Origin: an uncultured Clostridia bacterium
GTDB taxonomy: Bacteria > Bacillota > Clostridia > Lachnospirales > CAG-274
NCBI GenBank assembly: GCA_947627855.1
Contig: CANQXR010000011.1
Coordinates: 1,638 to 65,637 of the forward strand
Length of the DNA stretch: 64,000 nt
Direction: 5' to 3'
The notes beneath the pieces were generated by a model, which was not told the origin of the DNA, made no database searches, and saw only the letters and a list, made by a program, of their open reading frames with translations. Position numbers and translations under genes: made by a program. Of the stretch, positions 2,840-61,132 are shown in pieces. Position 1 is the first letter of the stretch, and every line of letters begins with the position of its first letter.

Positions 2840-3337
2840 ATGTTCAGAAAAATGAGAAGAGCGGCTCAGCTTCTGACGGAACAGGAAAGCATTGAAATAC
2901 TGAAAAAATGCTCCTCCGGCGTGCTTGCCGTATCGGGAGATGACGACTATCCCTATGCTGTGCCCCTTAGCTATGTGTATGAAAACGGCAGGCTTTATTT
3001 TCACTGCGCCCTCACAGGTCATAAAATCGACGGAATAAAAAGGAATGAAAAGGCTTCATTCTGCGTGGTGGACAAGGACGAGGTTATACCCGAAAAATAC
3101 ACCACACTTTTCAGAAGTGTTATAGTATTCGGCAAGGCTAAAATAATAGAGAACAAGGAAGAAAAAATAAGGATAGCCCTGATGCTTGGCGAAAAATACA
3201 ATCCCGGTCATATTGATGACGCAATGGACGAAATAAACAGGCTTTTTTCCGCCCTCTGCATAATAGAGCTGAATATAGAGCATATCACCGGCAAAGCCGC
3301 CAAAGAACTGGCTGCAATAAAAAAGGATCTGCCTTAA
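2840..3337 (+). CDS. Pyridoxamine 5'-phosphate oxidase-family FMN-binding protein (Nim/5-nitroimidazole reductase-like)
   Basis: MRRAAQLLTEQESIEILKK...GVLAV.GDDDYPYAVPLSYVY.NGRLYFHCA is the typical N-terminal pattern of Nim/PNPOx split-barrel proteins. Confidence 0.75.
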   Translation: MFRKMRRAAQLLTEQESIEILKKCSSGVLAVSGDDDYPYAVPLSYVYENGRLYFHCALTGHKIDGIKRNEKASFCVVDKDEVIPEKYTTLFRSVIVFGKAKIIENKEEKIRIALMLGEKYNPGHIDDAMDEINRLFSALCIIELNIEHITGKAAKELAAIKKDLP

Positions 3338-3356
3338 TGTGGCAGATCCCTTTTTA
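3325..3356. terminator. Bidirectional terminator hairpin between convergent genes
   Basis: ggatctgcc-N7-ggcagatcc followed by cttttta; lies between the stop at 3337 (+) and the stop at 3358 (-). Confidence 0.6.
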
Positions 3357-3357
3357 T

Positions 3358-4758
3358 TTAAATAGGATATACTCCCTTATCGACATCGGCAAGGTTTGCG
3401 TCAATTCCGTACTTCTGAGCCTGACGGAACTTGAAATATTCCTCCGCAACCTGTGGGAAAAGAACATAGCTAAGCACGTCCTCCGGCTGCTCCTTATATG
3501 CCTTTACAGCCTCCTCAGCAGCGGGAAGCTCAGGCTCAAGAAGATCTGCCGGACGGCATTCAACAACCTTTTCATCGCCTATTATTTTCTTTCTTATTTC
3601 CTTTGAAATAGGTACAGGCGTTCTGCCGTACATACCCTTTACAAGATCCTTTGTTTCCTTTGGAGTCATCTTATATCTTTCACCCATAAGCACATTGAGA
3701 ACAGCCTGTGTGCCCACGATCTGACTTGATGGGGTAACGAGAGGAGGATATCCCAGATCCGCTCTTACACGGGGGATCTCTTCAAGAACCTCTCTGTACT
3801 TGTCCTCGGCGTTTGCATTTTTAAGCTGAGAAACAAGGTTTGAAAGCATTCCGCCGGGAACCTGATAAAGAAGTGTCGCTATATCCACAGACAAAACCTT
3901 CGTACTTAACAGACCGCTCTTAAGAGCTTTCTCACGTATAGGCAGGAAGTAGTCTGCGATTTCCTTAAGAAGAACCTCGTCAAGACCGATTTCATATTTC
4001 GTGCCCTTGAACGCCGCATTCATAACCTCTGTTGCCGGCTGTGACGTACCCATTGCAAAGGGACTCATATCCGTATCTATTATATCCGCTCCTGCTTCAA
4101 CAGCCTTCATATATGTCATTGAAGCAACGCCGCTTGTATAGTGGCTGTGAACCTCAAGAGGAAGCTTTACCTCCGACTTGATAGCCTTTACGAGGTCATA
4201 AGCCGACTGCGGAAGAAGCAGACCTGCCATATCCTTTATACATATGGAATCTGCGCCTATATCTCTGTACTGCTTTGCAAGCTTTACAAAATATTCCTCC
4301 GTATGGAAGTCGCTGAGCGTAAACGAAATGGCAAGCTGAGCATGACCGCCTTCCTTTTTGCAGTATTTTACAGCCGTTTCAAGGTTTCTCGGGTCGTTGA
4401 GAGCGTCGAAAATCCTTATAATGTCAATGCCGTTTTCAATACTCTTTCTTACAAACATTTCAACAACATCGTCTGCATAATGACGATATCCCAATATATT
4501 CTGTCCCCTTAAAAGCATCTGGAGCTTTGTGTTCGGGGCTGCCTTGCGTATAAGGCGAAGTCTTTCCCATGGGTCCTCATGAAGAAATCTAAGACAGGAG
4601 TCAAATGTTGCTCCTCCCCAGACCTCCATAGCGCCGAAACCGACCTTATCCATCTTATCCACAATGGGAAGAATGTCTTTTATTGAAAGTCTTGTAGCTA
4701 TAAGTGACTGCTGACCGTCACGAAGCGTACAATCACAGATTTTAACCTTTTTACTCAT
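3358..4758 (-). CDS. Oxaloacetate decarboxylase alpha / transcarboxylase 5S-type carboxyltransferase subunit (no biotinyl domain)
   Basis: N-terminal ICDCTLRDGQQSL (HMGL-like TIM barrel of OadA/PycB/5S). 466 aa, ends without an AMKM biotin domain. Confidence 0.85.
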   Translation of the reverse strand: MSKKVKICDCTLRDGQQSLIATRLSIKDILPIVDKMDKVGFGAMEVWGGATFDSCLRFLHEDPWERLRLIRKAAPNTKLQMLLRGQNILGYRHYADDVVEMFVRKSIENGIDIIRIFDALNDPRNLETAVKYCKKEGGHAQLAISFTLSDFHTEEYFVKLAKQYRDIGADSICIKDMAGLLLPQSAYDLVKAIKSEVKLPLEVHSHYTSGVASMTYMKAVEAGADIIDTDMSPFAMGTSQPATEVMNAAFKGTKYEIGLDEVLLKEIADYFLPIREKALKSGLLSTKVLSVDIATLLYQVPGGMLSNLVSQLKNANAEDKYREVLEEIPRVRADLGYPPLVTPSSQIVGTQAVLNVLMGERYKMTPKETKDLVKGMYGRTPVPISKEIRKKIIGDEKVVECRPADLLEPELPAAEEAVKAYKEQPEDVLSYVLFPQVAEEYFKFRQAQKYGIDANLADVDKGVYPI

Positions 4759-10573: not shown

Positions 10574-11935
10574 TTATTCTTCGTCAAAATAATCAAAGCC
10601 ATAGCCGTCTTTAAGAACCTTGTCCGTAATGACAGGCAGCGCCCCATAGGGCGTATAGTGCCAGTTGCGCACGCCCCACGGCGTAGTTTCAACACTGATA
10701 TAGTCAAAATCTATACTCGGATGGAAGAAAAGCCCAAGCAGACAGCCCCTGTCCTCACAGCGCTGAATTCTGTCAAGCATATCCTCAAGCTCATATATAT
10801 TGTTGAGATAATATGCCGGCAGCGGCACATAGGTCACAGCTCTGCCGGAAACGCTTTTTTTCACAGCAATATCATCTGCCTTGAATATTCCGCCCTCCGC
10901 CTGAAAAATAACGTCATACACCGTTTCCGCCATGGCAAGGTCGTCTTTTGTCGCTCCGTAATGTGGGAATTCAAACGCAGAACCGTCATAGCCCAGAAGC
11001 TCCGCCGTATTCCTCGCAATAACAAGCCTTCTCGCCCTCTCCTCCCGGTCAAGGGAAGAAAAATAGCCGAATTCATAGCCGTCAGCGGAATAATATTCGC
11101 CGAACTGATGGGTATAGCCGTGAATGACAATTTTGCCGCCCCTGTCCAGAAGATAGTCAAGGGTATATAAAAAGCTTGCCGTATAGGTGGTGGTCTGCCT
11201 TGTGAAGTCCACGTCTATCCCTTCGGAGGGATTTATATATCTCATTATCCACGCTATATAGAACCTCTGAGAGCGGCTGTTCAGATAATCCCCCACAACT
11301 CTCAGCTTTTCAAGTCCCTCGTCCGTATATCTCGGATTTTCACAGAAGGCGTCCGGCGTTATGTCCTCAAGGCGCAGCACAGCAGTCTTGGGATTTTCCC
11401 TCACAGCGATTTCGGGAATATCTGACTCATCTGTTTTTCTGTAATATATAAACGCCTTGTCACTGTCAGACTCAAAGCGACAGGTAAGCCCCATTCCCTT
11501 GACTATTTTATAGAAGGAAATAAAACATCTTCCGTCTATCTCCTTGAAATAAGGGTTTATTTCATCATCGCCATAGCCCGAAAATATGAAATTGTCATAT
11601 ATCATACCGAACTTCTCGGCATTTTCGTCTGCAATGGCAGCTATACCGTTGTAGGTTTCCTCAAAAGGAACATACAGTCTGCCGTCATAAAAATAAGTGT
11701 CCACTCCCAGAGGTTTGTCGAGAAAATATATCTGTGTAGGGGCAGGTCTTGCTTCGGAAAGAAGATAAGCCCTTATATCCTCTGTTTCCTCCGAAACCTC
11801 CTCCGAACCCATTACGCTGTGCATAAGTCCGACAGCCCTTTCTTCCGATATGTCGGAACACACCGTCCATATACAGCACGCCCCGGCCGCAAGCACAGCC
11901 GCAGCGACAATGCCCCTCTTCAATATTTTATTCAT
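10574..11935 (-). CDS. Membrane-anchored DUF2334-like (polysaccharide deacetylase-fold) protein
   Basis: N-terminal signal anchor [22 protein letters not shown]-terminal half has [10 protein letters not shown] ... IHGYTHQ, typical of DUF2334. Start set at ATG 11935 to limit the overlap with accA to 8 nt. Confidence 0.55.
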
Positions 11936-12722: not shown

Positions 12723-13636
12723 TGCTCTCCACCGCCTTTCCCATAGTGCAGCCTTATAAGCTCGGCAAGCTTATCCTTCATATCCTCTCTTTTTACTATA
12801 ATATCCACAAAGCCATGCTCCAGCTGGAATTCGGCCGTCTGGAAATCATCGGGCAGCTTCTGCTTTATGGTTCCCTCTATGACACGTCTGCCGGCAAAGC
12901 CCACAAGCGCCTTTGGCTCTGCAATGATTATATCCCCAAGCATTGCAAAAGATGCCGTAACTCCCCCTGTGGTGGGGTCTGTGAGAACGGAAATATAAAG
13001 TCCCCCTGCGTCAGAGTGCTTTGCGGCGGCAGCGGAGGTTTTCGACATCTGCATAAGGGAAATAATGCCCTCCTGCATTCTTGCGCCGCCCGAAGCCGCA
13101 AATATAACCACCGGCAGCTTATGGGCTATGGCATACTCAAAAGCTCTGGCAAGCTTTTCGCCCACAACGGAACCCATGGACGCCATTATGAATGATGAAT
13201 CCATCGCCCCTATAACGCATTCCTGTCCGCCTATTGTGCATTTTCCCGTTACAACAGCGTCCTTTATGCCTGTTTTCTTCTGCATATCGGCAATTTTTTC
13301 TTCATAATCGGGAAAGCCCAAGGGATTTGCTGCGCTCATACCTGCGTCAAACTCCGTAAAGCTGCCCCTGTCGGCTGTTATATATATTCTTTCTCTTGCG
13401 CCAAGTCTGAAATATTTTCCACATCTGGGGCAAATCTTATATCTTCCGGCTTCTGTCTTTGTTATTTCCTTGCCGCAGCCCCTGCACTTAACACTCACAA
13501 CCGCCTCTTCGGTCTTTGCCTCCTCATCGGCTTCGGTTTCGTGAGATTCAACGGCCTTATTGATTACTATATCGTCCTTTTTTCTGAATATGTTAAGTCC
13601 CAAAGGAAGATATTTTGATTTATTAAAAAGAGCCAA
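12719..13636 (-). CDS. accD: Acetyl-CoA carboxylase carboxyltransferase beta subunit (Zn-ribbon)
   Basis: CRGCGK...CPRCGKYFR zinc ribbon, then [10 protein letters not shown] and SGGARMQEG blocks. 4-nt overlap with accA. Confidence 0.9.
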
Positions 13637-20831: not shown

Positions 20832-21020
20832 TCACGCCTTATCACATTCTTTCCGAATACCGCAGGACATATCCTCCTCCCGTTCTAGCCTTGCCCTTAT
20901 AATTGCATTGCGCGCACCTATAACTATATCATCCAGAATAGCATCGATCTCCGCCTGTGTTTTCACCGCTCTTTCCTGATTCAGCTTCAATATCGTATTT
21001 CCGTCCTTTATGATCTCCAT
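20832..21020 (-). CDS. Small hypothetical protein (62 aa)
   Basis: ATG 21020 preceded by GAGGTGA. MEIIKDGNTILKLNQERAVKTQAEIDAILDD...; no recognisable family. Confidence 0.4.
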   Translation of the reverse strand: MEIIKDGNTILKLNQERAVKTQAEIDAILDDIVIGARNAIIRARLEREEDMSCGIRKECDKA

Positions 21021-21210
21021 AATATCACCTCTATAATAACTTATTCCGTTTTTATAGCAGGACTGCCCTTTAAAGTCCCGACTTTTAAAAAACCTTACTC
21101 CGCTGCGCCGTATAGCCGTAACCGACAACCTACTATGTTTTTTGATTATACTACTTGAAATAAGGGCTTGATTGGATATATAATATATAGAAGTATAGGA
21201 GGAAACTATT

Positions 21211-25059: not shown

Positions 25060-25170
25060 CCGCAGCGCAGGCAGTCAAGTGGGGGCAGCTTTGCTGCCCC
25101 CACTTGACTGCCTGCGCTACGGGTCGGGGCGTTCAGAGTATACGCCAAGGGCGTATACTCTGAACGCCCC
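25060..25170. repeat. Double-palindrome module, unit 1
   Basis: HP1 ccgcagcgcaggcagtcaagtgggggcagc-ttt-gctgcccccacttgactgcctgcgctacgg (one C.A mismatch). HP2 ggggcgttcagagtatacgcc-aag-ggcgtatactctgaacgcccc. Confidence 0.95.
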
Positions 25171-25312
25171 TGAGCAGCCCTATATAACAAAAAACCAACT
25201 TAATCTATAAGCTATCTTTTTTATATATTATAAATCACTTTTGAGGTTTCAAAATCTGTTGTTGATAATCTTTTTCTTCTGAGCAAAATTCAACTTACTG
25301 ACTAACGTCATT

Positions 25313-25425
25313 CCGCAGGGCAAGCCACCGAGTGGGGGCAGCTCTGCTGCCCCCACTCGGTGGCTTGCCCTGCGGGTCGGGGGCTTTCGGAGTATACGCC
25401 AAAGGCGTATACTCCGAAAGCCCCC
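25313..25425. repeat. Double-palindrome module, unit 2
   Basis: HP1 ccgcagggcaagccaccgagtgggggcagc-tct-gctgcccccactcggtggcttgccctgcgg (perfect). HP2 gggggctttcggagtatacgcc-aaa-ggcgtatactccgaaagccccc (perfect). Confidence 0.95.
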
Positions 25426-25575
25426 GAGCAGCCATACATAATAAAAAATTTGCTATACATTATAACAGACCTTTCTTTTTATATTTTTAAAAACATTCAA
25501 GCCGTCAAAATCCGTTGCTTCGTTGCTTATGATATTTACCTGAAATCAAACTCCGCCATGCCAACTGACATTGTT

Positions 25576-25684
25576 CCGTAGGGCAAACCGTCAAGTGGGA
25601 CAGCCCTGCTGTCCCACTTGACGGTTTGTCCTACGGGTCGGGGCATTCAGAGTATACGCCAAGGGCGTATACTCTGAATGCCCC
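25576..25684. repeat. Double-palindrome module, unit 3
   Basis: HP1 ccgtagggcaaaccgtcaagtgggacagc-cct-gctgtcccacttgacggtttgtcctacgg (one G.T). HP2 ggggcattcagagtatacgcc-aag-ggcgtatactctgaatgcccc. Confidence 0.95.
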
Positions 25685-25830
25685 GGGCAGCCCCATATAA
25701 TAAAAAGCTTACCGTACATTATAGCAGATTTTTTACTTTTTTATATGTTATAAAGCACTTTTTAATTATCAAAGTCAATTGTTAATGATATTTCCACAAT
25801 ACAAAATCCAACATACCGACTAACGTCATT

Positions 25831-25953
25831 CCGTGGGGCAAGCCGCCGAGTGGGAGCAGCTTTGCTGCTCCCACTCGGCGGCTTGCCCCACGGGTCGGGG
25901 GGTGGGATTTAAGAGTACACGCCAAAGGCGTATACTCTTAAATCCCACCCCCC
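25831..25953. repeat. Double-palindrome module, unit 4
   Basis: HP1 ccgtggggcaagccgccgagtgggagcagc-ttt-gctgctcccactcggcggcttgccccacgg (perfect). HP2 ggggggtgggatttaagagtacacgcc-aaa-ggcgtatactcttaaatcccacccccc (one C.A). Confidence 0.95.
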
Positions 25954-25965
25954 GAGCAGCCCATA

Positions 25966-26002
25966 TAAAAAGGTCTGCCGTACATCACAGCAGACCTTTT
26001 TA
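25966..26002. terminator. Bidirectional terminator at the end of the array and the 3' end of ilvB
   Basis: aaaaa-ggtctgc-N11-gcagacc-ttttta. Degenerate versions of the same hairpin plus T-run follow units 1-3. Confidence 0.65.
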
Positions 26003-27679
26003 TTAATACATATCATCAAAGGTTATAAGACTGTCGCAGCCCTTTCCCGCAGGAATCATAGGCAAAACCATTTCATCATTGTCAATTATACAGTTTATAA
26101 GACAGGTTTTTCCCGATTCCATAGCTTTTCTGAGAGCCGGTTCAAATTCTTCAGGCTTTCTTACCTCAAATGCAAGAGCGCCGAAAGCCTCTGCAAGCTT
26201 GCAGAAATCCGTTCCCTTTCTGAGGGTCGTCTGCGAATAGCGTTTGCCGTAAAAAAGTGTCTGCCACTGTCTTACCATACCCAGAACCTCATTATTTATA
26301 AGTACCTCTATAACAGGCAAATCGGAAAAAACAGAGGTTGCAAGCTCGTTGCAGTTCATATAGAAACAACCATCACCGGCTATATTTATAACTGTCTTGT
26401 CAGGGTTGCCGGCCTTTGCGCCTATTGCGGCACCAAGTCCATAGCCCATTGTACCAAGTCCTCCCGAAGTTATCAGGTGACGAGGATATTTCTGTGTAAG
26501 GAACTGACACGCCCACATCTGATGCTGTCCTACCTCAGTGGCAATAATAGCCTCTCCCTTTGTTACTTCATTTATTTTTTCTATTATAAACTGAGGGTGA
26601 AGCTCATTGCCGTCAAAATATTTGAGGGGATTTTCTTTGCATATATTTATGCACTCTTCCTTCCAAGGCGTAAACTTAACAGTACCGACCTTGTTTTTAA
26701 TATGCTTGAAAATCTCTCTCAAATCTCCGACAACACTTGCGTCCGTCATTACGTTTTTGTTAATTTCCGCAGGATCTATGTCAAAATGCAGAACCTTTGC
26801 GCCCGGCACAAACTTAGATACGTCAGTTGCAATTCTGTCCGAAAATCTCGTGCCGGCAGAAATAAACACATCACATTCGTTTGCCGCTACATTTGCGCCT
26901 ACTGTGCCGTGCATACCTATCATACCCATATATCCCGACAAATCGCTGGGTATTACTCCAAGCCCCATGGAGGTGGAGCAGACAGGCATATCCGTTCTCT
27001 TGAGAAATGAAAGTATTTCATCTCTTGCTCCCGAAGCAACAGCCCCGCCGCCTACGCAAAGCAAAGGCTTTTTGGCGTTGTTTATTATTTCAGCTGCGCT
27101 CTCGATATCGCTTTCCTCTATGGAATCCGTTTTGGGCAATATAGGTTCGGGGGCTTTATAGGTATATTCCGCCTTATTCGCCGTTACGTCCTTTGTAATG
27201 TCCACAAGAACGGCGCCCTTTCTGCCCGATGCGGCAATACGAAAAGCCGACCTTATGGTGTCCGCAAGGTCATTTACGTCCTTTACAATGTAGTTATGCT
27301 TTGTAATAGGCATCGTTATGCCTGTAATATCAACCTCCTGAAAGCTGTCCTTGCCCAACAGTGGAAGCCCCACATTGCAGGTTATGGCAACAAGCGGAAT
27401 GGAGTCCAGATTTGCCGTTGCTATGCCTGTTACAAGATTTGTTGCGCCGGGACCGGACGTTGCCAGACACACTCCGACCTTACCTGTCGAACGCGCATAT
27501 CCGTCAGCAGCATGAGATGCTCCCTGCTCGTGAGAGGTAAGGTAGTGCTTTATCTCACTGCTGTGCTTGTAAAGAGCATCGTAAACATTCAGAATAGCTC
27601 CTCCCGGATAGCCAAAAACAACATCAACCCCCTGCTCCTTTAAACATTCTATAAGTATTTCGGAACCTGTTAACAGCAT
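26003..27679 (-). CDS. ilvB: Acetolactate synthase large subunit
   Basis: ThDP enzyme pattern: GYPGGAIL, GPGATNLVTG, GLGTMGYGLGAAIGAK, GDGCF.MN.QEL. Confidence 0.95.
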   Translation of the reverse strand: MLLTGSEILIECLKEQGVDVVFGYPGGAILNVYDALYKHSSEIKHYLTSHEQGASHAADGYARSTGKVGVCLATSGPGATNLVTGIATANLDSIPLVAITCNVGLPLLGKDSFQEVDITGITMPITKHNYIVKDVNDLADTIRSAFRIAASGRKGAVLVDITKDVTANKAEYTYKAPEPILPKTDSIEESDIESAAEIINNAKKPLLCVGGGAVASGARDEILSFLKRTDMPVCSTSMGLGVIPSDLSGYMGMIGMHGTVGANVAANECDVFISAGTRFSDRIATDVSKFVPGAKVLHFDIDPAEINKNVMTDASVVGDLREIFKHIKNKVGTVKFTPWKEECINICKENPLKYFDGNELHPQFIIEKINEVTKGEAIIATEVGQHQMWACQFLTQKYPRHLITSGGLGTMGYGLGAAIGAKAGNPDKTVINIAGDGCFYMNCNELATSVFSDLPVIEVLINNEVLGMVRQWQTLFYGKRYSQTTLRKGTDFCKLAEAFGALAFEVRKPEEFEPALRKAMESGKTCLINCIIDNDEMVLPMIPAGKGCDSLITFDDMY

Positions 27680-27697: not shown

Positions 27698-29368
27698 TCA
27701 ATCGAGTACAGCTCCCCTGTCAGCCGATGAAACAAGTCTTGCATATCTTGCAAGCCAGCCTGTTTTGATTTTCGGCTCAGGCATCTTATGATTCTTTCTT
27801 CTTTCCTCCAGCTCTTCGTCTGAAAGTCTTACATTTATGCTTCCTTCGTTTATGTCAATATCGATTATGTCGCCCTCTTTTACTAAGCCTATGGCTCCTC
27901 CTGCCATGGCTTCGGGTGATATATGACCTATTGAGGCCCCTCTTGACGCTCCCGAAAAACGACCGTCAGTAATAAGGGCAACCTCCTTGTCAAGCTTCAT
28001 GCCTGCAAGAGCCGATGTGGGTGAAAGCATTTCCCTCATACCCGGACCTCCCTTTGGTCCCTCGTAGAGTATGACAACAATATCTCCCGAAACGATTTTG
28101 CCGCCGAATATTGCCGCAATAGCCTCCTCTTCAGAGTTGAAAACTCTTGCCGGACCGCTGTGCTTAAGCATTTCCGGAGCAACTGCCGACCTTTTCACAA
28201 CACAGCCGTTCTTTGCTATATTGCCCTTTAAAACAGCTATACCGCCTGTTTTTGAATACGGATTTTCCACAGGACGTATAAGGCTCGTGTTTTTATTCAC
28301 AGCGTTTTCTATATTCTCTCCCACTGTTTTGAGTGTACAGGTAAGATTGTCGAGAGAGAGGAGTCCGAGCTTGCTTATTTCCTTCATTACGGCAGGTATT
28401 CCTCCTGCTTCGTTAAGCTCTTCTATATAATTCGGTCCCGCGGGGGCAAGATGGCAAAGATTGGGGGTCTTTGCGGAAATCTCGTTTGCTATGTCAAGAT
28501 TCAGCTCCACACCTGCCTCGTGAGCTATTGCGGGAAGATGGAGCATTGAATTTGTGGAGCAGCCCAGCGCCATATCCATTGTAAGAGCGTTTCTGAATGC
28601 CTTTTCATTCATAATATCCTTTGGCTTTATGTCCTTTTCCACAAGCTTCATAATCTGCATGCCGGCGTGCTTTGCAAGAATAATTCTGTCGCCTGATACG
28701 GCAGGAATAGTTCCGTTTCCCGGAAGAGCCATTCCTATTACCTCGGAAAGACAGTTCATTGAATTTGCAGTATACATACCTGAGCATGAGCCGCAGCCCG
28801 GACAGGATTTGTTTTCATATTCCTTAAGCTGCTCATCATTTATAAGCCCTGCCTCATATGCGCCTACTGCCTCAAATGTGGCGGAAAGGCTTAATTTTCT
28901 CATACCCTCGCCGCAGTCCATATGTCCTGCAAGCATAGGTCCGCCGCTTACAACTATTGCCGGAATATTAAGTCTTGCGGCAGCCATAAGCATTCCCGGA
29001 ACTATCTTATCACAATTGGGTATAAGCACAAGTCCGTCAAAGCCGTGAGCCATTGCAAGGGATTCTGTTGAATCGGCAATAAGCTCTCTTGAAGGCAGAG
29101 AATAGTGCATACCTATATGCCCCATTGCAATACCGTCACACACGCCTATGGCAGGTACCTCTATGGGCGTTCCTCCTGCGGCAAGCACTCCCGCCTTTAC
29201 TGCGGCAGCTATTTTGTCAAGGTGCATATGTCCCGGTATAATTTCGCTTTTGGCATTCACAACGCCTATAAGAGGTCTTGCAAGATCTTCATCTGTATAT
29301 CCCATAGCCTTAAAAAGCGAACGATGGGGAGTTTTATCGGGTCCCTTTTTCACTCTGTCACTTATCAT
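27698..29368 (-). CDS. ilvD: Dihydroxy-acid dehydratase
   Basis: [51 protein letters not shown] motifs. Start set at ATG 29368, 10 nt downstream of the preceding gene's stop; the ORF-track extension to 29461 overlaps that gene. Confidence 0.95.
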
Positions 29369-31196
29369 ATTCGTCCTCCTCCTTTGTTGTCCAAGCGGAT
29401 CTGACCGCTTCTTCTCCGTATATTGTATAATATCTGTATTCGCCGTTTTCCAGACGGACATTCACAAGCCCGTTAATATATTTATAGGGGTCTGTTGAAA
29501 CCATTTTTACGTCTGTAACAATCCTGCCCAGAACTCCTTCGGTGTCAAATACGTCAATCTCATTCGGGGATTTTGCCACATAGCCTATACCGTCATAAAC
29601 ATCAATATCGTGTCCCGTTCCCAGATCGATTATCTCTTTGCCGTTTCTGTCAAGGATTTTAAAGGGTGCGCAGTAGCTCCAGTTGGTCTTGTTTATGTCG
29701 CAGGCGTGTATATACTCTCCGCCCTCTTCTGCGCTTATATAATCAAAGCCGAGAGCCGCCGCATCTATAAGAACCTCTCCGTTTTTGTCAAGCAGGAAAT
29801 AATTTTCCTTGCTGTCCTTCGCTATAATATCACCCTTGTCGGTAAACTTCATATATGAATAGCCTCTTATATATTCATTACTGTAAACCCTTAAAAGCAC
29901 ATAACCCTTTTCAAGGCTGTCATTAAGAATCATATTGGTGCCCGATGTTCCCGTTACTTCATATCTGCCTGTGTCTATCTGAACAGACTTCGACTTTTCG
30001 CCGCTTACATTTCTTATTTCATAGCTTCCGCCGCCGTTGTCATATAAGTACCAGCCGTTTATAACAAAGCCTTCGTTTCTGAAATTAGCAAAAGGATCTC
30101 CGTCATATTCGTCCGTTACCTCTCCCGTCTTTAAATCAACCGCCATTGGTGCATAGTTTGCCGAAAAGCCGTATGCCTTGTCGTCGGTAAAACCGTCTAT
30201 CTGACTAAAATCGGGACCTATCTGCTGTTTATCCTTACCTATGAATATACTCCTGCCAACACCTGCTCCCACAGAGGTAACAACCTGCATATAGTCATTT
30301 CCTACGGGATATACATAGCCTTTTTCGGCTGCGGTGTAGGAATTTCCTGCTCCGTCATAATATATCGGCTCGTAGGTATAGTCCTTGCTGACCCACATAT
30401 AAGGGGCGTCAAGCCGATACCTGCCGTTATGGTCGCCATACAGCATATTATCGGCTGAAGGATAAAGCTCAGGCTCAGGTCTTGTAACCTTTCCGGGAGC
30501 TTTACATACATAATAAAGCCTTAAAACAGCCCTGTAAAACTCCTCCCGTGTCATCTCATCATCGGGGCGAAAGCTTTCACTGTCTCCAGACAGAATACCA
30601 AGATGATAAAGCACATTCACAGCTTCTCTGTTTTCCCTTGAAATGTCCTTGCTGTCCTTAAAAATATGAGGCAGGAAAACAGGATTTACGCCGTCTTTGT
30701 TATCAGCCCTCAGATCCTTTACAACAGAGGTTGAAACGTCAAGAAAACGATAGAGCATACCTGCCGTGTTTTCTCTTGTCACCTTTTCAAAATAGTTATA
30801 TTCGGGAGCTTTCTGCTTATAGATCCCCAAAGCCTCCATATAATTTACATACCATGTTTTGTCGTTTTCTGCGTTTTCATCATAGCCGCCTGCAAGAGCC
30901 TTTTCCTTAAGTCCGGCTATTTCGTCCGTATCGAGAAAGCTGCAGCCGTGTAGATTTTCCAGAACGCCGTTAAGGCTGTAACATATTTCGTCCGAAATCA
31001 TTCCCATCTGAAACGCCATTGCGTTGGCTGTGTGGAGAATGCCCAGATCCTGAAGCTCTTCCATCTCGCCTATGACTGCCTGTGAGCTTATACTGTCATA
31101 ATTGGGCGAAGAGCCCGGCTGTGACAATGCTTCAACAGGCGCTGCCACAGACATAACCAACATAAGCGCTGCCGCCCTGATTAAAAATTTCCTCAT
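29358..31196 (-). CDS. Secreted protein with an SLH-like segment and WG-repeat-like C-terminal region
   Basis: Signal peptide [65 protein letters not shown] resembles an SLH module. Repeated (L/I)D.NG.E.I segments resemble WG/KWG repeats. ATG 31196 overlaps the upstream stop (ATGA). Confidence 0.5.
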
Positions 31197-31783
31197 AAAA
31201 ATCCATCCTTTTTGCAATTATAACCCCATTTTTTAAGCCCTTCGGCAACGGACAGATAAATTTCCGCAATATCGGTCTTACCGGAGCCGAATCTGTGAAG
31301 ACCTGCGGCGTGATTGTGAGAAATTCCCGCTTTTTCATCTGTGCCGAAAATACCTCTGAAATTCCCCCACTTGGCGGAGCCTGGAGTTGTCAAGCCATCG
31401 CATACTCCCTCGCAAAGTCTTACGGCAATATAGCGCACTGCCGGTGAAATGTCTGTAAGGGGGCTTTTGTCACCCTTCAAGCGGTAAAATGCGTCAGCAG
31501 CCCTTGAGCCTGCCCTCATCATAAAATCGGGAACGACCCCGAATACAATATCCATAGTACGGGAGCCTCTGTGGGGTGTTGCAAATGTAACAAGTGACGC
31601 CACATTTTCCGCCATACCAAGGCTTGAAATCATATATCCTGCGTCAGGTCCTCCCTTTGAATGGGCGATTATATTCACCTTTTCAAAGCCACCCTGTGAG
31701 AAATAGCCTTTAAAGTCGTCCCTTGCGCCAAAGCCGTGTACAAGAACTATGGGATATTTTGCCGCGCATCTGTTTGTTGTCAT
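31193..31783 (-). CDS. Small alpha/beta-hydrolase (lipase class 2-like), possibly internally deleted
   Basis: YPIVLVHGFG oxyanion segment, IIAHSKGG nucleophile elbow, ATPHRGS. Only ~17 aa lie between HGFG and the elbow strand, versus ~60 in Bacillus LipA-type enzymes. No signal peptide. Confidence 0.45.
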   Translation of the reverse strand: MTTNRCAAKYPIVLVHGFGARDDFKGYFSQGGFEKVNIIAHSKGGPDAGYMISSLGMAENVASLVTFATPHRGSRTMDIVFGVVPDFMMRAGSRAADAFYRLKGDKSPLTDISPAVRYIAVRLCEGVCDGLTTPGSAKWGNFRGIFGTDEKAGISHNHAAGLHRFGSGKTDIAEIYLSVAEGLKKWGYNCKKDGFL

Positions 31784-41983: not shown

Positions 41984-42016
41984 CCTTTCCGCAGGAGCTG
42001 CGGAAAGGTTTTTTTT
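41984..42016 (+). terminator. Rho-independent terminator of the GntR/ABC operon
   Basis: cctttccgcag-gag-ctgcggaaagg followed by tttttttt. Confidence 0.75.
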
Positions 42017-42031
42017 GCGGCGAAACGCCGC

Positions 42032-42063
42032 AAAAAAAAACAGCCGCCCGTAATGGGCGGCTG
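42032..42063 (-). terminator. Rho-independent terminator of the sugar-ABC ATPase gene
   Basis: Reverse strand cagccgccc-attac-gggcggctg followed by ttttttttt. Confidence 0.7.
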
Positions 42064-45911: not shown

Positions 45912-47162
45912 ATGGATCTGAATATAACAGGCGAAAAAGCAAAGGCAGCGGCACGGATTGCCGCCACTCTGACAACAGGCAAAAAAAATGAGCTTCTGAA
46001 TGCTATGGCGGAGGCTCTTAAAGCCGAAAGGGACAAGATACTTGCTGCAAATGTCATAGATGTGGAAAAAGCGGTAAAGGCAGGCACCAAAGCATCTCTT
46101 GTTGACAGACTTTCACTTAACAAGGACAGAATAGACGCCATGGCGGAGGGGCTTTTGCAGATAGCTAAGCTGCCCGACCCAATAGGCGAAGTAATCAATA
46201 TGAACACTCTGCCCAACGGACTTATTGTGGGAGAAAAGAGAGTTCCCATGGGTGTTGTGGCTATTATATATGAAGCACGACCGAATGTAACAGCCGATGC
46301 GTTCGGGCTTTGCCTTAAATCGGGAAATGCGGTGATATTAAAAGGCGGCTCTGATGCCATAAACTCAAATATAGCCATTGTCGGCACATTCAAAAAAGCC
46401 GTAGCCGAAGCAGGAGTAAACCCGGACATAGTTCAGCTTATTGAAGATACGTCAAGGGAAACAGCCGCCGCCCTTATGAAGCTTAACAAATATATCGATG
46501 TGCTTATACCAAGAGGGGGAGCAGGGCTTATACAGTCAGTCGTACAGAATTCCACTGTCCCTGTTATAGAAACGGGAGTTGGAAACTGCCACGTATATAT
46601 AGACGATTCCGCTGACATACAAATGGGCATAGATATAATAATAAATGCCAAAACACAGCGTCCGGGAGTATGCAACGCAGCCGAAACACTTCTTGTAAGC
46701 GAAAAAGCCGCCAAAAGCTTTCTTCCCGCTGCCGTCAAAGCGCTCAGAGAAAAAAATGTTGAAATAAGAGGCTGTGAAAAAACAGCGGAAATATGCCCGG
46801 ACATGGGTATAATACCTGCCTCGGAAGACGATTATTATACAGAATTTCTCGATTATATTCTCGCTGTAAAGGTGGTTGGCGGTGTGGACGAAGCAATAGA
46901 GCATATTGCAAGATATTCTACCGGTCATTCGGAAGCCATAGTAACGGAAAGCTATACAAACGCAATGAAGTTTTTAAACGAGGTGGATTCCGCCGCCGTA
47001 TATGTAAACGCATCAACACGCTTTACAGATGGCAATGAATTCGGCTTCGGCGCCGAAATAGGAATATCCACTCAGAAGCTCCACGCAAGAGGACCTATGG
47101 GACTTAAAGCACTTACGACCACAAAATTTATAATTTACGGAAACGGTCAGATAAGAGGCTGA
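45912..47162 (+). CDS. proA: Gamma-glutamyl phosphate reductase
   Basis: Aldehyde dehydrogenase fold with the ProA pattern ([53 protein letters not shown]). Confidence 0.95.
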
Positions 47163-47177
47163 GCCGAACAGGGTTCC

Positions 47178-47306
47178 GACCCGTGGGGAGCCGACTTCCA
47201 AACCGTCAGGGACGGTTTGGAAGTCGGCTCCCCACGGGTCGGGTCGGGGCACGCACATCGGGGGCGGCGGATAAATCCGCCGCCCCCGATGTGCGTGCCC
47301 CGACCC
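47178..47306. repeat. Solitary double-palindrome module of the same family as the 25-kb array
   Basis: HP1 ccgtggggagccgacttccaaaccgtc-agg-gacggtttggaagtcggctccccacgg. The junction is GTCGGGTC. HP2 ggggcacgcacatcgggggcggcgg-ataaat-ccgccgcccccgatgtgcgtgcccc. Flanks ttCCG... and ...gggcaacatattcaaaaagc match the array flanks. Fills the convergent proA / PNPOx intergenic gap. Confidence 0.9.
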
Positions 47307-47342
47307 GGGCAACATATTCAAAAAGCTTTAAAATGCCGCAAT

Positions 47343-47735
47343 TTAAAGTTTGATTATAATAGGCTCCTCTGTGAACGAGCATATTCTCGCTTCAACATTT
47401 TTAAGATAAAACACTTCCGTGTTTCCGTCGCCGGGCGAATACATATTCTGAAGTGAAGGATATGCATCAAGCATATGCCTTTGGGCTTCAATGTTGTCGT
47501 CCAAAACAGCCTCGGCACTTATGCGTATCCACTTGCCCCCGGACATGGCTGATATTTCTATGCTTGGGTTTTTCTTCATTTGCGCCGATACGTCCTTTAC
47601 CTTGCCCGTCTGAATATAGAGCCTGTTTTCAAATATATCAATTGTTCCGAAAGGACGGACACGGGGCTTATCTCCATCAATGGTTGCCAGATAATATACC
47701 TCGCTGTTTTTCAGAAAATCATAAATATCATTCAT
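47343..47735 (-). CDS. Pyridoxamine 5'-phosphate oxidase-family protein (general stress protein 26-like)
   Basis: VYYLATIDGDKPRVRPFG ... split-barrel pattern, 130 aa. Confidence 0.7.
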   Translation of the reverse strand: MNDIYDFLKNSEVYYLATIDGDKPRVRPFGTIDIFENRLYIQTGKVKDVSAQMKKNPSIEISAMSGGKWIRISAEAVLDDNIEAQRHMLDAYPSLQNMYSPGDGNTEVFYLKNVEARICSFTEEPIIIKL

Positions 47736-47788
47736 TGTGCTTCCTCCCGTTCCATACCGATTTTCAGTTCAGTCCCAAGTCTGAGGGA

Positions 47789-53051: not shown

Positions 53052-54195
53052 ATATAATTGATATCCGGCTTTCAGCATACCCTGCTGAAAGCCCTTATCC
53101 AGCCATTATATATTAAAACATTACACCCAGATACTTTGAAACCACTTCATTCGGGCTTTGCATATTGAGGCACGTTTTTATATATGTATTAGATTTCTTT
53201 TGATAAACAGCGAGCTGTTTCCTGCCATCTTCCAAATTATACATTTTTAACTTGCTGTAAAACCTTTCCTCGTCCTGTCTGTTCTGACGTTCTACTTTGC
53301 CATTATGCCGAGGTGTTGCTATTCGTATTCTTTGATATTCGATACCAAGCTTTTCTAATGCACCCTCAAATAATGTCTTATGCTTTGCTTTTACGACCAA
53401 TAACGCATTGGTAAACTCAGGACCGTTATCCGTTTGTATTCTCAATATAGGAAACGGAGCTGCCTTTATCAAGCTTAGCAGAAACTGATATGAGCTGTAT
53501 GTGCTGTGCTCATCATACATCTGCCTGAAAGTCCACCTGCTGCATTCATCAATGGCAACATAAACATAATATTTCCGACCGTCAACAGTACACCTACTTG
53601 GTACATATTTTACGTCAGAGCGAAAAAATAATTTCTTTTAAAGCTTTATGGATATTATTTTTTCGCTTTTCTGTACCTTTTGTCCAATATATTCTGCCCT
53701 TTTATATGGCTTGGGTTTCCTTTTTGCTTTTTCCTTCTTGACAGTCTTTACCTTTAACCTACTTACAAACTTCCTGAAGCTGTCATAACTGCGAGTGTAT
53801 CCGTATCTTTCTTTCATTTCCTGATATGCCAGTATTACATCTTTCCATTAACGGAACAAGTGAAATACCAATAAATATTAATAGAAATTTCACTTGTTCC
53901 ATATATGCTTTTTCATAAGCCTTTTTATTAGCTTTATCTCTTTGTCTGTATGTGACTTTCGGAGATGATGTGGTCTGTGACTTCTGTCTTCAAGACTTTT
54001 TATGGTTCCATCATACCGTTTCATCCATTTATATACAGTCTTCCGACTTACTCTGAACCTCAAAGATGTTTCTGTTACTGTATGTCCCTCTAAATATTTA
54101 ATTATCCGTTGACGAAAGTTCTTTAATTGTGCTAACATAGTATTGCAAGATTCTCCTTTCTTGATATTTTTGTTGTTTGGACACTTCAATTATAT
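53052..54195 (-). mobile_element. Degenerate IS481-like insertion sequence (boundaries uncertain)
   Basis: Contains the broken DDE transposase gene. The only end signal seen is a 10-bp AT-rich inverted match, atataattga (53052..53061 versus the complement of 54186..54195), which is weak evidence. Confidence 0.4.
53113..54189 (-). pseudogene. IS481-family (rve/DDE) transposase split into three same-frame fragments
   Basis: Fragment 1: HTH ...VSRKTVYKWMKRY...RSHRPH. Fragment 2: WKDVILAYQEMKERYGYTRSYDSF...GQKVQ. Fragment 3: DVKYVPS...YVYVAIDECSR...IQTDNGPEF...ATPRHNGKVERQNR (D, D, E of the rve fold). In-frame stops at 53892..53890 and 53640..53638. Confidence 0.75.
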
Positions 54196-60091: not shown

Positions 60092-61132
60092 ATGATACAT
60101 ATGAAGGAATATTTTGCTTTTCAATGGCACATTACGGACGAATGCGACCAAAGATGTAAGCACTGCTATATATTTTCGGAAAATACAGATAAAAAGACGG
60201 ATAATATGACCTATGGGCAAATGAAGGAGGTATTGGCAAACTGCGAGGACTTCTGCATTATGTACGACAGACTGCCCTACTTCTATATTACAGGAGGCGA
60301 CCCACTGCTTAACCCCGACTTCTGGAGGCTTGCGGAGCTTCTGAAAAGCAGGAGCATTCCCTTTGCCATTCTTGGCAACCCTTTTCACCTCACGGAAGAT
60401 GTATGCAGACGGCTGAAGGAAAGCGGCTGTCTGAAATATCAGCTTTCGGTGGACGGCATGAGAAAAACCCACGATTGGTTCAGAAAAAGCGGCTCCTTCG
60501 ACATAACCATGGATAAAATAAGCCTTATCAAAAAAGCAGGTATGAAAGCAGTCGTTATGACCACCGTATCGGGAACAAACATAGACGAAATTCCCGATAT
60601 TACAGACGCCGTTGTCGAAGCCGGAGCGGACGTGTTTGCCTTTGCGAGATATTGTCCCACAAGCAGTGAAAAAAGCGTAAATATAGATCCTTTGCGCTAT
60701 CGCAGACTTCTTGCGGAGTGCGACAGGAAATTCAAGGAATATGAAAAAAAGGACTGCAAAACCTATTTCAGCAGAAAAGACCACCTATGGACACTTTTCA
60801 GATATGAAACGGGAGAATTCACTATTCCCGAAGCTGCCGCAAAGGGTGTTATATACGATGGGTGCAACTGCGGAAACTGCCACCTTACCATTCTGCCCAA
60901 CGGCGACGTTATGGCTTGCAGAAGGGTAAACGGCAGCATATTGGGCAGCGTATTTGAAAACAGACTGGCGGACATATGGGTATGTGAAGCGGAGGAATTC
61001 AGAAACTACGACAAATTCATAAAATGCAGCAAATGTGAATTACTGGCGTGGTGCAGAGGGTGTCCTGCTGTTGCGGCAGGAGCCGGAGGAGATTTTTACG
61101 CTCCCGACCCGCAGTGTTGGAAGGAGGTCTGA
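60092..61132 (+). CDS. Radical SAM / SPASM-domain peptide-modifying enzyme
   Basis: CDQRCKHC (CxxxCxxC) at residues 18-25. C-terminal CNCGNCHLTILPNGDVMAC ... CSKCELLAWCRGC ... DPQC matches the SPASM seven-Cys pattern. 346 aa, no N-terminal RRE-sized extension. ATG 60101 is an alternative start. Confidence 0.9.
   Translation: MIHMKEYFAFQWHITDECDQRCKHCYIFSENTDKKTDNMTYGQMKEVLANCEDFCIMYDRLPYFYITGGDPLLNPDFWRLAELLKSRSIPFAILGNPFHLTEDVCRRLKESGCLKYQLSVDGMRKTHDWFRKSGSFDITMDKISLIKKAGMKAVVMTTVSGTNIDEIPDITDAVVEAGADVFAFARYCPTSSEKSVNIDPLRYRRLLAECDRKFKEYEKKDCKTYFSRKDHLWTLFRYETGEFTIPEAAAKGVIYDGCNCGNCHLTILPNGDVMACRRVNGSILGSVFENRLADIWVCEAEEFRNYDKFIKCSKCELLAWCRGCPAVAAGAGGDFYAPDPQCWKEV

Follow-up and report, generated by a model that had tools for sequence, protein, structure and literature searches.

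Extragenic palindromes such as the repetitive extragenic palindromes (REPs) were first described some forty years ago, and their origin and persistence are still debated. The double-hairpin elements of Allomyces mitochondria are comparable GC-rich modules, and we know of no description of perfect arms or mirrored insertions and deletions (indels) in mitochondrial hairpin elements. REPs are found mainly between unidirectional and convergent open reading frames (ORFs), often in clusters, and have stems of 5–13 bp in units of 20–40 bp (PMC3733652). As to how palindromes change, three reports describe template switching that homogenises and expands the arms of inverted repeats (PMC8604942, PMC13100816, PMC7202029). 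Our literature searches returned no bacterial family of long, perfect, abutting palindromes with freely drifting stems and mirrored indels. Here we analyse such palindromes in a 64,000-nucleotide stretch of DNA from an uncultured Clostridia bacterium (GenBank assembly GCA_947627855.1, contig CANQXR010000011.1, positions 1,638–65,637; the whole stretch is called the window below), starting from a module of two hairpins that follows proA. The hairpin modules are a real dispersed family, seen so far in two related sporulating Clostridia species only, and a comparison of their arms points to a probable templating of one arm by the other within the DNA.

The module after proA has the two-hairpin, perfectly self-complementary structure that an initial annotation of the window had proposed, with a junction and outer flanks like those of an array of modules at 25060–25957. 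Its stems are longer than was thought, 32 and 33 bp instead of 27 and 25–30 bp. The arms of hairpin 1 (47176–47207 and 47211–47242, 32 nt each) are 100% complementary, as are those of hairpin 2 (47240–47272 and 47275–47307, 33 nt each, with 2 nt in between), and the two hairpins overlap by 3 nt. With RNA parameters the module folds at −158 kcal/mol (z = −18; −159.5 kcal/mol and z = −19 for the other strand) and with DNA parameters at −94 kcal/mol (z = −18); none of the shuffled sequences reached its fold energy. The annotation had also called the stem sequence essentially unrelated to that of the array. This is true of the interior of hairpin 2, which cannot be aligned, and not of hairpin 1, which has CCGTGGGG..AGCCG and CAAACCGTC in common with the array copies and other members and is recognisably related to the family, because these foot and apex motifs recur there.

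Further members were present in the DNA that we collected around homologous genes, which together with the window covers ~123 kb of the genomes of the two species (contigs are given below by L numbers). The second, sister species is represented by an NCBI metagenome-assembled genome (MAG; GCA_947632615.1), whose ProA, IlvB and HisH are 86%, 93% and 88% identical. In the window species, contig L152 carries one module between hisH and hisA (10623–10755) and another in the convergent hisE/SHMT gap (12945–13092), the foot of which, GCTGCTCGGGGGC...GCCCCCGACCCGC, is that of array hairpin 2 in reverse orientation. In the sister species, a double hairpin orthologous to the one studied here, with identical junction and right foot, lies 3′ of proA (L136, 11280–11406), and a double hairpin is found inside the his operon, between hisH and hisA. 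The same species has four consecutive hairpins in the convergent FBPase/CitMHS gap, a hairpin with 44-bp arms plus a small one in a divergent gap (L146), and six directly abutting perfect hairpins with arms of ~22–44 bp in the orthologous ilvB/PRC gap, the last without AT-rich spacers and without sequence likeness to the window array. The proA, ilvB/PRC and hisH–hisA sites are thus occupied in both species. In all there are six independent loci (four convergent, one intra-operon and one divergent), with clusters of 2–8 hairpins. The proposal of a dispersed family with conserved architecture, short anchors and fast-changing paired stems is borne out by these additional members, whereas its restriction to convergent 3′–3′ gaps holds within the window and fails for the family, given the his operon and the divergent gap. 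No hairpin of this kind was seen in ~69 kb from more distant relatives (75–85% identical in the compared proteins), the hairpin-free relatives including GCA_965306405.1, GCA_021201395.1 and GCA_021202835.1; in one of them (L140) proA is followed by an ordinary terminator, though the gap is likewise convergent.

We analysed how the arms of these palindromes change. Thirty hairpins from both species entered the pairing statistics, and of their 869 predicted pairs 864 are Watson–Crick and 5 (0.6%) are G:U. Stems measure 14–50 bp (at least 19 bp in 27 of the 30) in units of 31–104 nt, the loop is 3 nt in 24 hairpins, neighbouring hairpins are spaced by −4 to 5 nt, and GC content is 57–77% in 28 hairpins, in a genome of 44% GC. 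When the four array copies are compared, both sides have changed with the pairing kept in 14 of the 55 pairs, and the ~4 single-mismatch positions read on the + strand as two G:U and two C:A, an even strand split. The orthologous comparison comprised four hairpins, two at proA and two at hisH–hisA. Of the 132 aligned arm positions, 96 (73%) are identical; the others comprise 27 substitutions and 9 gap positions, and the opposite arm reproduces these differences exactly, with ~3 exceptions. The orthologue of hairpin 1 (L136, 11280–11344) differs by 7 substitutions and a 1-nt indel, of which the indel and 6 substitutions are mirrored; that of hairpin 2 (L136, 11342–11406) differs by 8 substitutions plus 2 single-base indels, all mirrored. 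At least five indels are mirrored: 1 nt in hairpin 1 of array unit 3, 1 nt in hairpin 2 of unit 2, ~6 nt in hairpin 2 of unit 4, and 1 nt and 2 nt in the proA orthologues. In the same comparison the flanking intergenic DNA is 68–69% identical, and third codon positions are 56% (proA) and 64% (hisH) identical. Arm identity is thus near that of the flanking DNA, so that the drift of the stems is about as fast as that of the non-coding sequence beside them.

What may be a young event of this type is seen in the sister species at L136 11245–11278, where the sequence AGGTTGA tt TCAACCT ctt GGTTGA aa TCAACCT starts within the last proA codons and spans the stop. It is a perfect palindrome with 15-nt arms (AGGTTGATTTCAACC tctt GGTTGAAATCAACCT), built of two small hairpins. 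The duplication is inverted rather than direct, because the inner loop tt becomes aa, and it looks like recent fold-back copying, because the last proA codons are included. Window positions 47150–47175 hold no counterpart of it.

On balance, and with some reservation, we favour the view that the perfection of the palindromes is maintained in the DNA itself, one arm repeatedly templating the other, and that the modules originated by insertion and local tandem duplication. Copying in DNA is preferred to selection on RNA because both substitutions and indels, including the ~6-nt insertion, are mirrored. Independent compensatory mutation cannot give a mirrored 6-nt insertion and RNA selection would tolerate G:U, so templating of one arm by the other is the simplest account. 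The annotation had left the choice between functional RNAs and palindromes regenerated by hairpin-templated synthesis; the second fits much better, in view of the mirrored indels, the rarity of G:U, the minimal loops, a divergence near that of neighbouring non-coding DNA and the lack of an Rfam match. What we find, mirrored multi-base changes and indels with arms that reach the loop and the flanks, is also what quasipalindrome correction predicts, together with extended arms and minimal loops (PMC7202029, PMC8604942, PMC13100816), and the inverted duplication over the sister-species proA stop looks like a fresh event of that sort. The difference is that quasipalindrome correction is known for sporadic mutations at scattered short repeats and is not known to maintain, as a standing process, a dispersed family of 45–104-nt palindromes.

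It is possible to outline how such maintenance might proceed. The palindrome would fold during replication and undergo intramolecular template switching or hairpin-templated repair synthesis, so that each new change would be either erased or copied to the opposite arm. Pairing would spread inward to the smallest loop and outward until the neighbouring hairpin is met, while a GC bias of the correction, or selection for stability, may keep the stems GC-rich. Modules would enter sites by insertion, multiply locally by tandem duplication and survive where they are harmless, mostly at gene 3′ ends.

Several points weigh against arm-to-arm copying as the whole explanation. We infer the conversion step from sequence, with ~123 kb of the two genomes covered. 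Very strong selection for pairing on both strands is conceivable for the substitutions, though it hardly explains the mirrored 6-nt insertion. Template switching alone leaves the source of the G/A-rich stem interiors unexplained, and equally the conserved feet and flank motifs. Long perfect palindromes are, moreover, normally attacked by SbcCD-type nucleases, so their abundance here needs explaining. A blastn-short search with 22 arms against ~160 kb of collected DNA matched only the arms themselves, array paralogues or the orthologue, and found no source of the stems.

Selection on RNA would be a different cause of the pairing: the hairpins would serve as bidirectional terminators, or as signals that stabilise or process mRNA at 3′ ends and between cistrons, with pairing kept by compensatory mutation. 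We regard this as unlikely. In its favour, E. coli REPs stabilise upstream mRNA, most of the copies described here lie just after stop codons with four of the six independent loci convergent, and the proA/PNPOx gap, which is convergent, has no other terminator. However, functional RNA helices usually carry several percent G:U, against the 0.6% found here, and stems of 30–50 bp are far beyond the needs of termination or protection and would be RNase III substrates. Mirrored indels of up to 6 nt also speak against it, as do the absence of a U-tract on either side of the proA module, the canonical terminator that adjoins the array regardless, and the module in a divergent promoter gap. A T-run is absent after either hairpin of the proA module on either strand, and a terminator scan of the gap found none. 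We rejected an intrinsic (Rho-independent) terminator as the identity of the module, as there is no U-tract and the ordinary terminators of the window look quite different. Those in convergent gaps at 3316–3358, 25965–26003 and 42007–42041 are bidirectional and consist of an A-run, a GC stem of 7–10 bp and a T-run. Rfam 15 gave 0 matches at gathering score in the whole window, and relaxed scans gave only sub-threshold matches to generic hairpins (miRNA precursors) on both strands.

A role of the transcripts downstream of arm copying is another matter. GC-rich intercistronic stem-loops govern processing and stability in a Clostridia operon (PMC10311766), which counts for the RNA explanation. 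These stem-loops, which act in selective RNA processing and stabilisation, resemble the modules in being GC-rich and in lying between cistrons of a Clostridia genome, and they make an RNA-level consequence of the hisH–hisA module plausible. They differ in being single, shorter and locus-specific, with no dispersed family, anchors or perfect palindromy. Where transcribed, the modules would be very strong 3′-end or intercistronic hairpins with a putative effect on mRNA decay or processing; by analogy, they probably shape mRNA 3′ ends or intercistronic processing. Such an effect would not be the cause of their perfection.

The modules probably arose by insertion, because the hisH–hisA site is empty in an outgroup (L157, HisH 82%), where the hisH TAA is followed by a 19-nt spacer with a ribosome-binding site and then by the hisA ATG. 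Both hairpin-bearing species have ~170 nt (flank motif plus module) between the hisH TAA and AGAAAGG, with no obvious target duplication. The modules also coincide with boundaries of rearrangement, namely the PNPOx edge and a synteny break near the divergent-gap hairpin. The alignment with the sister species ends at 47311, and the boundary of the presence or absence of PNPOx is the exact right edge of the proA module. Window 47312–47787 corresponds here to L136 11411–11417, the BLAST blocks stopping at 47311 and restarting at 47788. A second PNPOx-family gene (Pyridox_ox_2, 165 aa) lies at window 2840–3337, adjoining a glutamate dehydrogenase gene. The synteny break is at window ~21138 versus L146 16068–16117, ~50 bp from the sister-species hairpin with 44-bp arms; beyond it the sister species has the his operon, and the window has a 98-aa ORF without Pfam match (20832–21128), a MarR-type regulator and fab genes.

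Insertion raises the question of a mobile element. One candidate is a canonical REP family, organised as bacterial interspersed mosaic elements (BIMEs) and mobilised by a REP-associated tyrosine transposase (RAYT, TnpA-REP), with the GYRG in the foot of hairpin 1 as the GTAG tag. The niche is alike, with gene 3′ ends, operon interiors and clusters of alternating hairpin types, and insertion without obvious target duplication fits single-strand HUH/Y1 transposition. The modules are extragenic, mostly after genes, in convergent and co-directional gaps, and clustered, as REPs are, and the foot of hairpin 1 reads CCG-GTAG/GCAG/GTGG-G. Its G(T/C)(A/G)G, which is GTAG in array copy 3, is however base-paired with its complement, whereas REPs are imperfect and carry an unpaired GTAG or CGTC tag at one end. 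Stems of 14–50 bp in units of 31–104 nt are likewise beyond the published REP range, and REP copies share sequence whereas the arms studied here match only array paralogues and orthologues. No Y1 transposase (RAYT) was seen in the gene tables of the window and the other loci, ~123 kb of the two species. Taken together, a REP/BIME identity also looks unlikely. The likeness to the REP/BIMEs of Proteobacteria lies in GC-rich extragenic palindromes after stops and in operons, two alternating hairpin types, lineage specificity and a brief motif conserved in the foot (GYRG and GGTCGG in the present case); the differences are the paired foot, stem interiors not conserved between copies and a low-GC Clostridia host.

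Another candidate, which we consider quite improbable, is a non-autonomous element of the IS200/IS605 type (like a miniature inverted-repeat or palindrome-associated transposable element) with one subterminal hairpin at its left and one at its right end. It would account for two adjacent hairpins of two types, for the one-sided conserved flank and for the lack of an obvious target duplication. The ends of IS200/IS605 elements are, however, short imperfect hairpins of conserved sequence, unlike the stems described here. Nor does a left and a right end fit hairpin numbers that vary from 2 to 8 per locus (four in FBPase/CitMHS, six in ilvB/PRC of the sister species and eight in the window array). 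Neither TnpA nor TnpB was seen in the collected DNA of the loci.

Integron attC sites resemble the modules in that they are defined more by the folded single strand than by sequence and occur in arrays. They need imperfect stems with extrahelical bases, R″/R′ boxes (RYYYAAC / GTTRRRY), cassettes and an integrase. We rejected an attC identity, as the stems are perfect, the flanks GTTCCGA and GGGCAAC misfit GTTRRRY and RYYYAAC, and the spacers of the array are not cassettes; the window contains no integrase.

A further reading is possible, if doubtful: the modules would be a type of selfish DNA not described before in bacteria, namely a mobile element of two hairpins in which a single arm serves to regenerate each palindrome. 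Such an element might pass through a single-stranded or hairpin-primed intermediate and be recognised by an enzyme at the GGTCGG/AGCCGAC anchors, so that its sequence would drift while its structure stays perfect. The conserved feet and the flank motif suggest recognition by a protein involved in spread. If true, mitochondrial double-hairpin elements and GC clusters would have a counterpart in bacteria, and arm-to-arm conversion, perhaps GC-biased, could be measured in a natural system. Mitochondrial GC clusters and repetitive hairpin-forming elements (PMC2800124, PMC4478555) are similar in that they are GC-rich hairpin modules that invade AT-richer intergenic DNA, show variable sequence and composition, are not the same in close relatives and lack a known transposase. 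They are different in being organellar and mostly shorter, and there is no evidence of common ancestry.

The positions of the module after proA, of the array and of their neighbours are collected in Table 1.

Table 1. Modules, flanking motifs and neighbouring features in the window
Feature	Position	Strand	Remarks
Left flank motif GCCGAACAGGGTT	47163–47175	+	directly 3′ of the proA stop codon
Hairpin 1	47176–47242	.	32-bp perfect stem, loop 3 nt (agg), foot CCGACCCGTGGGG, apex CAAACCGTC
Junction CGGGTCGGGTCGGGG	47235–47249	+	contains CGGGTCGGGG, invariant across all five window modules
Hairpin 2	47240–47307	.	33-bp perfect stem, foot CGGGTCGGGGC / GCCCCGACCCG, 5′ arm G-rich
Right flank GGGCAACATATTCAAAAAGC	47308–47327	+	common to the array (GRGCAGCC..ATATAA..AAAAA)
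proA (glutamate-5-semialdehyde dehydrogenase; Aldedh/ProA ORF)	45912–47162	+	upstream neighbour
PNPOx-family gene	47343–47735	−	convergent neighbour; sister species without a copy at the same position
Array module 1	25060–25170	+	hairpin 1 25060–25122, hairpin 2 25126–25170
Array module 2	25313–25432	+	1-nt indel in hairpin 2, mirrored on both arms
Array module 3	25576–25688	+	1-nt deletion in hairpin 1, mirrored on both arms
Array module 4	25831–25957	+	~6-nt insertion in hairpin 2, mirrored on both arms
Three AT-rich array spacers	25171–25830	+	interleaved with modules 2 and 3; align to 25956–26100
Bidirectional intrinsic terminator of ilvB/PRC	25965–26003	.	ordinary, non-family, adjoins the array, kept in the sister species

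Four double-hairpin units make up the array, spaced at ~257–260 bp and bounded by a PRC-barrel ORF (+) on one side and an acetolactate-synthase (ilvB-like) ORF (−) on the other. Its spacers derive, in decayed form, from the bidirectional ilvB/PRC terminator and the 3′ end of ilvB; as they align to the sequence to the right of the array, the entire intergenic unit has been duplicated in tandem. We rejected a CRISPR-like array, the spacers being duplicated terminator and 3′-end sequence of ilvB. A set of small-RNA genes was rejected too; a promoter search of the array units gave weak consensus matches only, several of them within the palindromes. A palindrome scan of the whole window found 10 long GC-rich hairpins, those of the five modules, plus ordinary terminators, and no others.

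A module measures ~125–150 bp; its two GC-rich hairpins abut at CGGGTCGGGG, their feet are of the GGTCGG type, and short motifs flank them. The foot and apex of hairpin 1 follow the pattern CCG-YRG-G(G)CAAGCC...CAAACCG(Y)C, and the foot of hairpin 2 the pattern CGGGTCGGGG(G)C(G)AG. The array and the proA module have TTCCG at the left and GRGCARC..ATAT..AAAA at the right in common, and the left flank of the latter, taken with the GA of the proA TGA stop, reads GAGCCGAAC. A one-sided flank, (G)AGCCGAMC, lies directly 3′ of the upstream stop at proA and hisH in both species and also flanks the divergent-gap module of the sister species (L146). The motif CGGGTCGGG occurs 8 times in the window versus 0.14 expected, 7 times in the five modules and once, at 61103, in coding sequence without a hairpin. 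Similarly, GGTCGG is present 14 times in 2.9 kb of modules versus 2.2 expected from shuffles (maximum 7 in 500), and at 0.29 per kb outside the modules. Two hairpin types (G/A-rich ..GGC nnn GCC.. and ..ATCGCC nnn GGCGAT..) alternate in most clusters. We dropped a two-type scheme for the orientation of modules and do not rely on it, because in the window array a foot of one type goes with an apex of the other type.

Pattern scans of sequence collections gave chance matches. A stricter pattern (junction, hairpin 2 and right flank) had 0 viral, 1 genome and 7 metagenome matches, all by chance and with no hairpins, the pattern being too strict. These scans say little on distribution, because GRGCARC was required and the sister-species copy reads GGGCAGA. 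In viral contigs, a loose anchor pattern gave 120 matches, all non-palindromic chance matches in GC-rich DNA, and the foot pattern CGGGTCGGGG..CCCCGASCMG gave 22 chance matches. Among the latter are a 77% palindromic, GGGGC/GGGTC-rich hairpin in a 505-kb viral contig (L165, 9021–9085) and tandem GGTCGGGGC-type repeats that end a 55-kb viral contig (L173, 19–103), both apparently unrelated.

Palindromes of this kind could in principle be chimeras of metagenome assembly or library preparation, and many assemblies do break or turn chimeric exactly inside the hairpins. An artefact is nevertheless exceedingly improbable: the same sequence is recovered across a whole module in independent samples, with different assemblers and in an NCBI MAG, and orthologous modules with conserved flanks lie at the same gene junctions in two species. 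Contigs with identical ProA or PNPOx, from several ENA and Logan assemblies, are all of the same strain and are uninformative for evolution; one of them spans the proA module unchanged, and in five others the sequence ends or becomes chimeric within the hairpins. Assemblies that end inside hairpins occur for both species (L123, L124, L126, L127, L128, L137, L138, L147–L150 and L153–L155), and in contig L127 the chimeric joint falls at the centre of hairpin 2. Over the six-hairpin cluster of the sister species (L146, 11719–12141) one gene caller placed a 140-aa ORF without Pfam match. The hairpins thus cause short-read metagenome assemblies of the two species to break at identical places, and they give rise to spurious ORF calls.

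The gene content of the window is that of an ordinary Clostridia chromosome (SpoIIGA, fatty-acid synthesis, oxaloacetate decarboxylase, ilv/leu and proBA). Between leuB and ilvD, window 29358–31783 (~2.4 kb) encodes an SLH-domain protein (619 aa) and a 196-aa ORF without Pfam match; the sister species has 102 bp in its place, and a more distant relative (L151) has an SLH protein at the same place. Fragments of insertion-sequence genes, unrelated to the hairpins, lie in long non-coding gaps at 53113–54189, with a 135-aa ORF (a weak rve_3 match and no Pfam match at E ≤ 1e-5) and a 99-aa HTH_Tnp_IS630/HTH_28 ORF.

The family described here separates two processes that are usually confounded, the maintenance of structure by templating in DNA and selection on RNA. 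If arm-to-arm copying is confirmed, it would mean that an entire family of long perfect palindromes can be maintained in a bacterial chromosome by template switching, which may also help to explain their GC enrichment.

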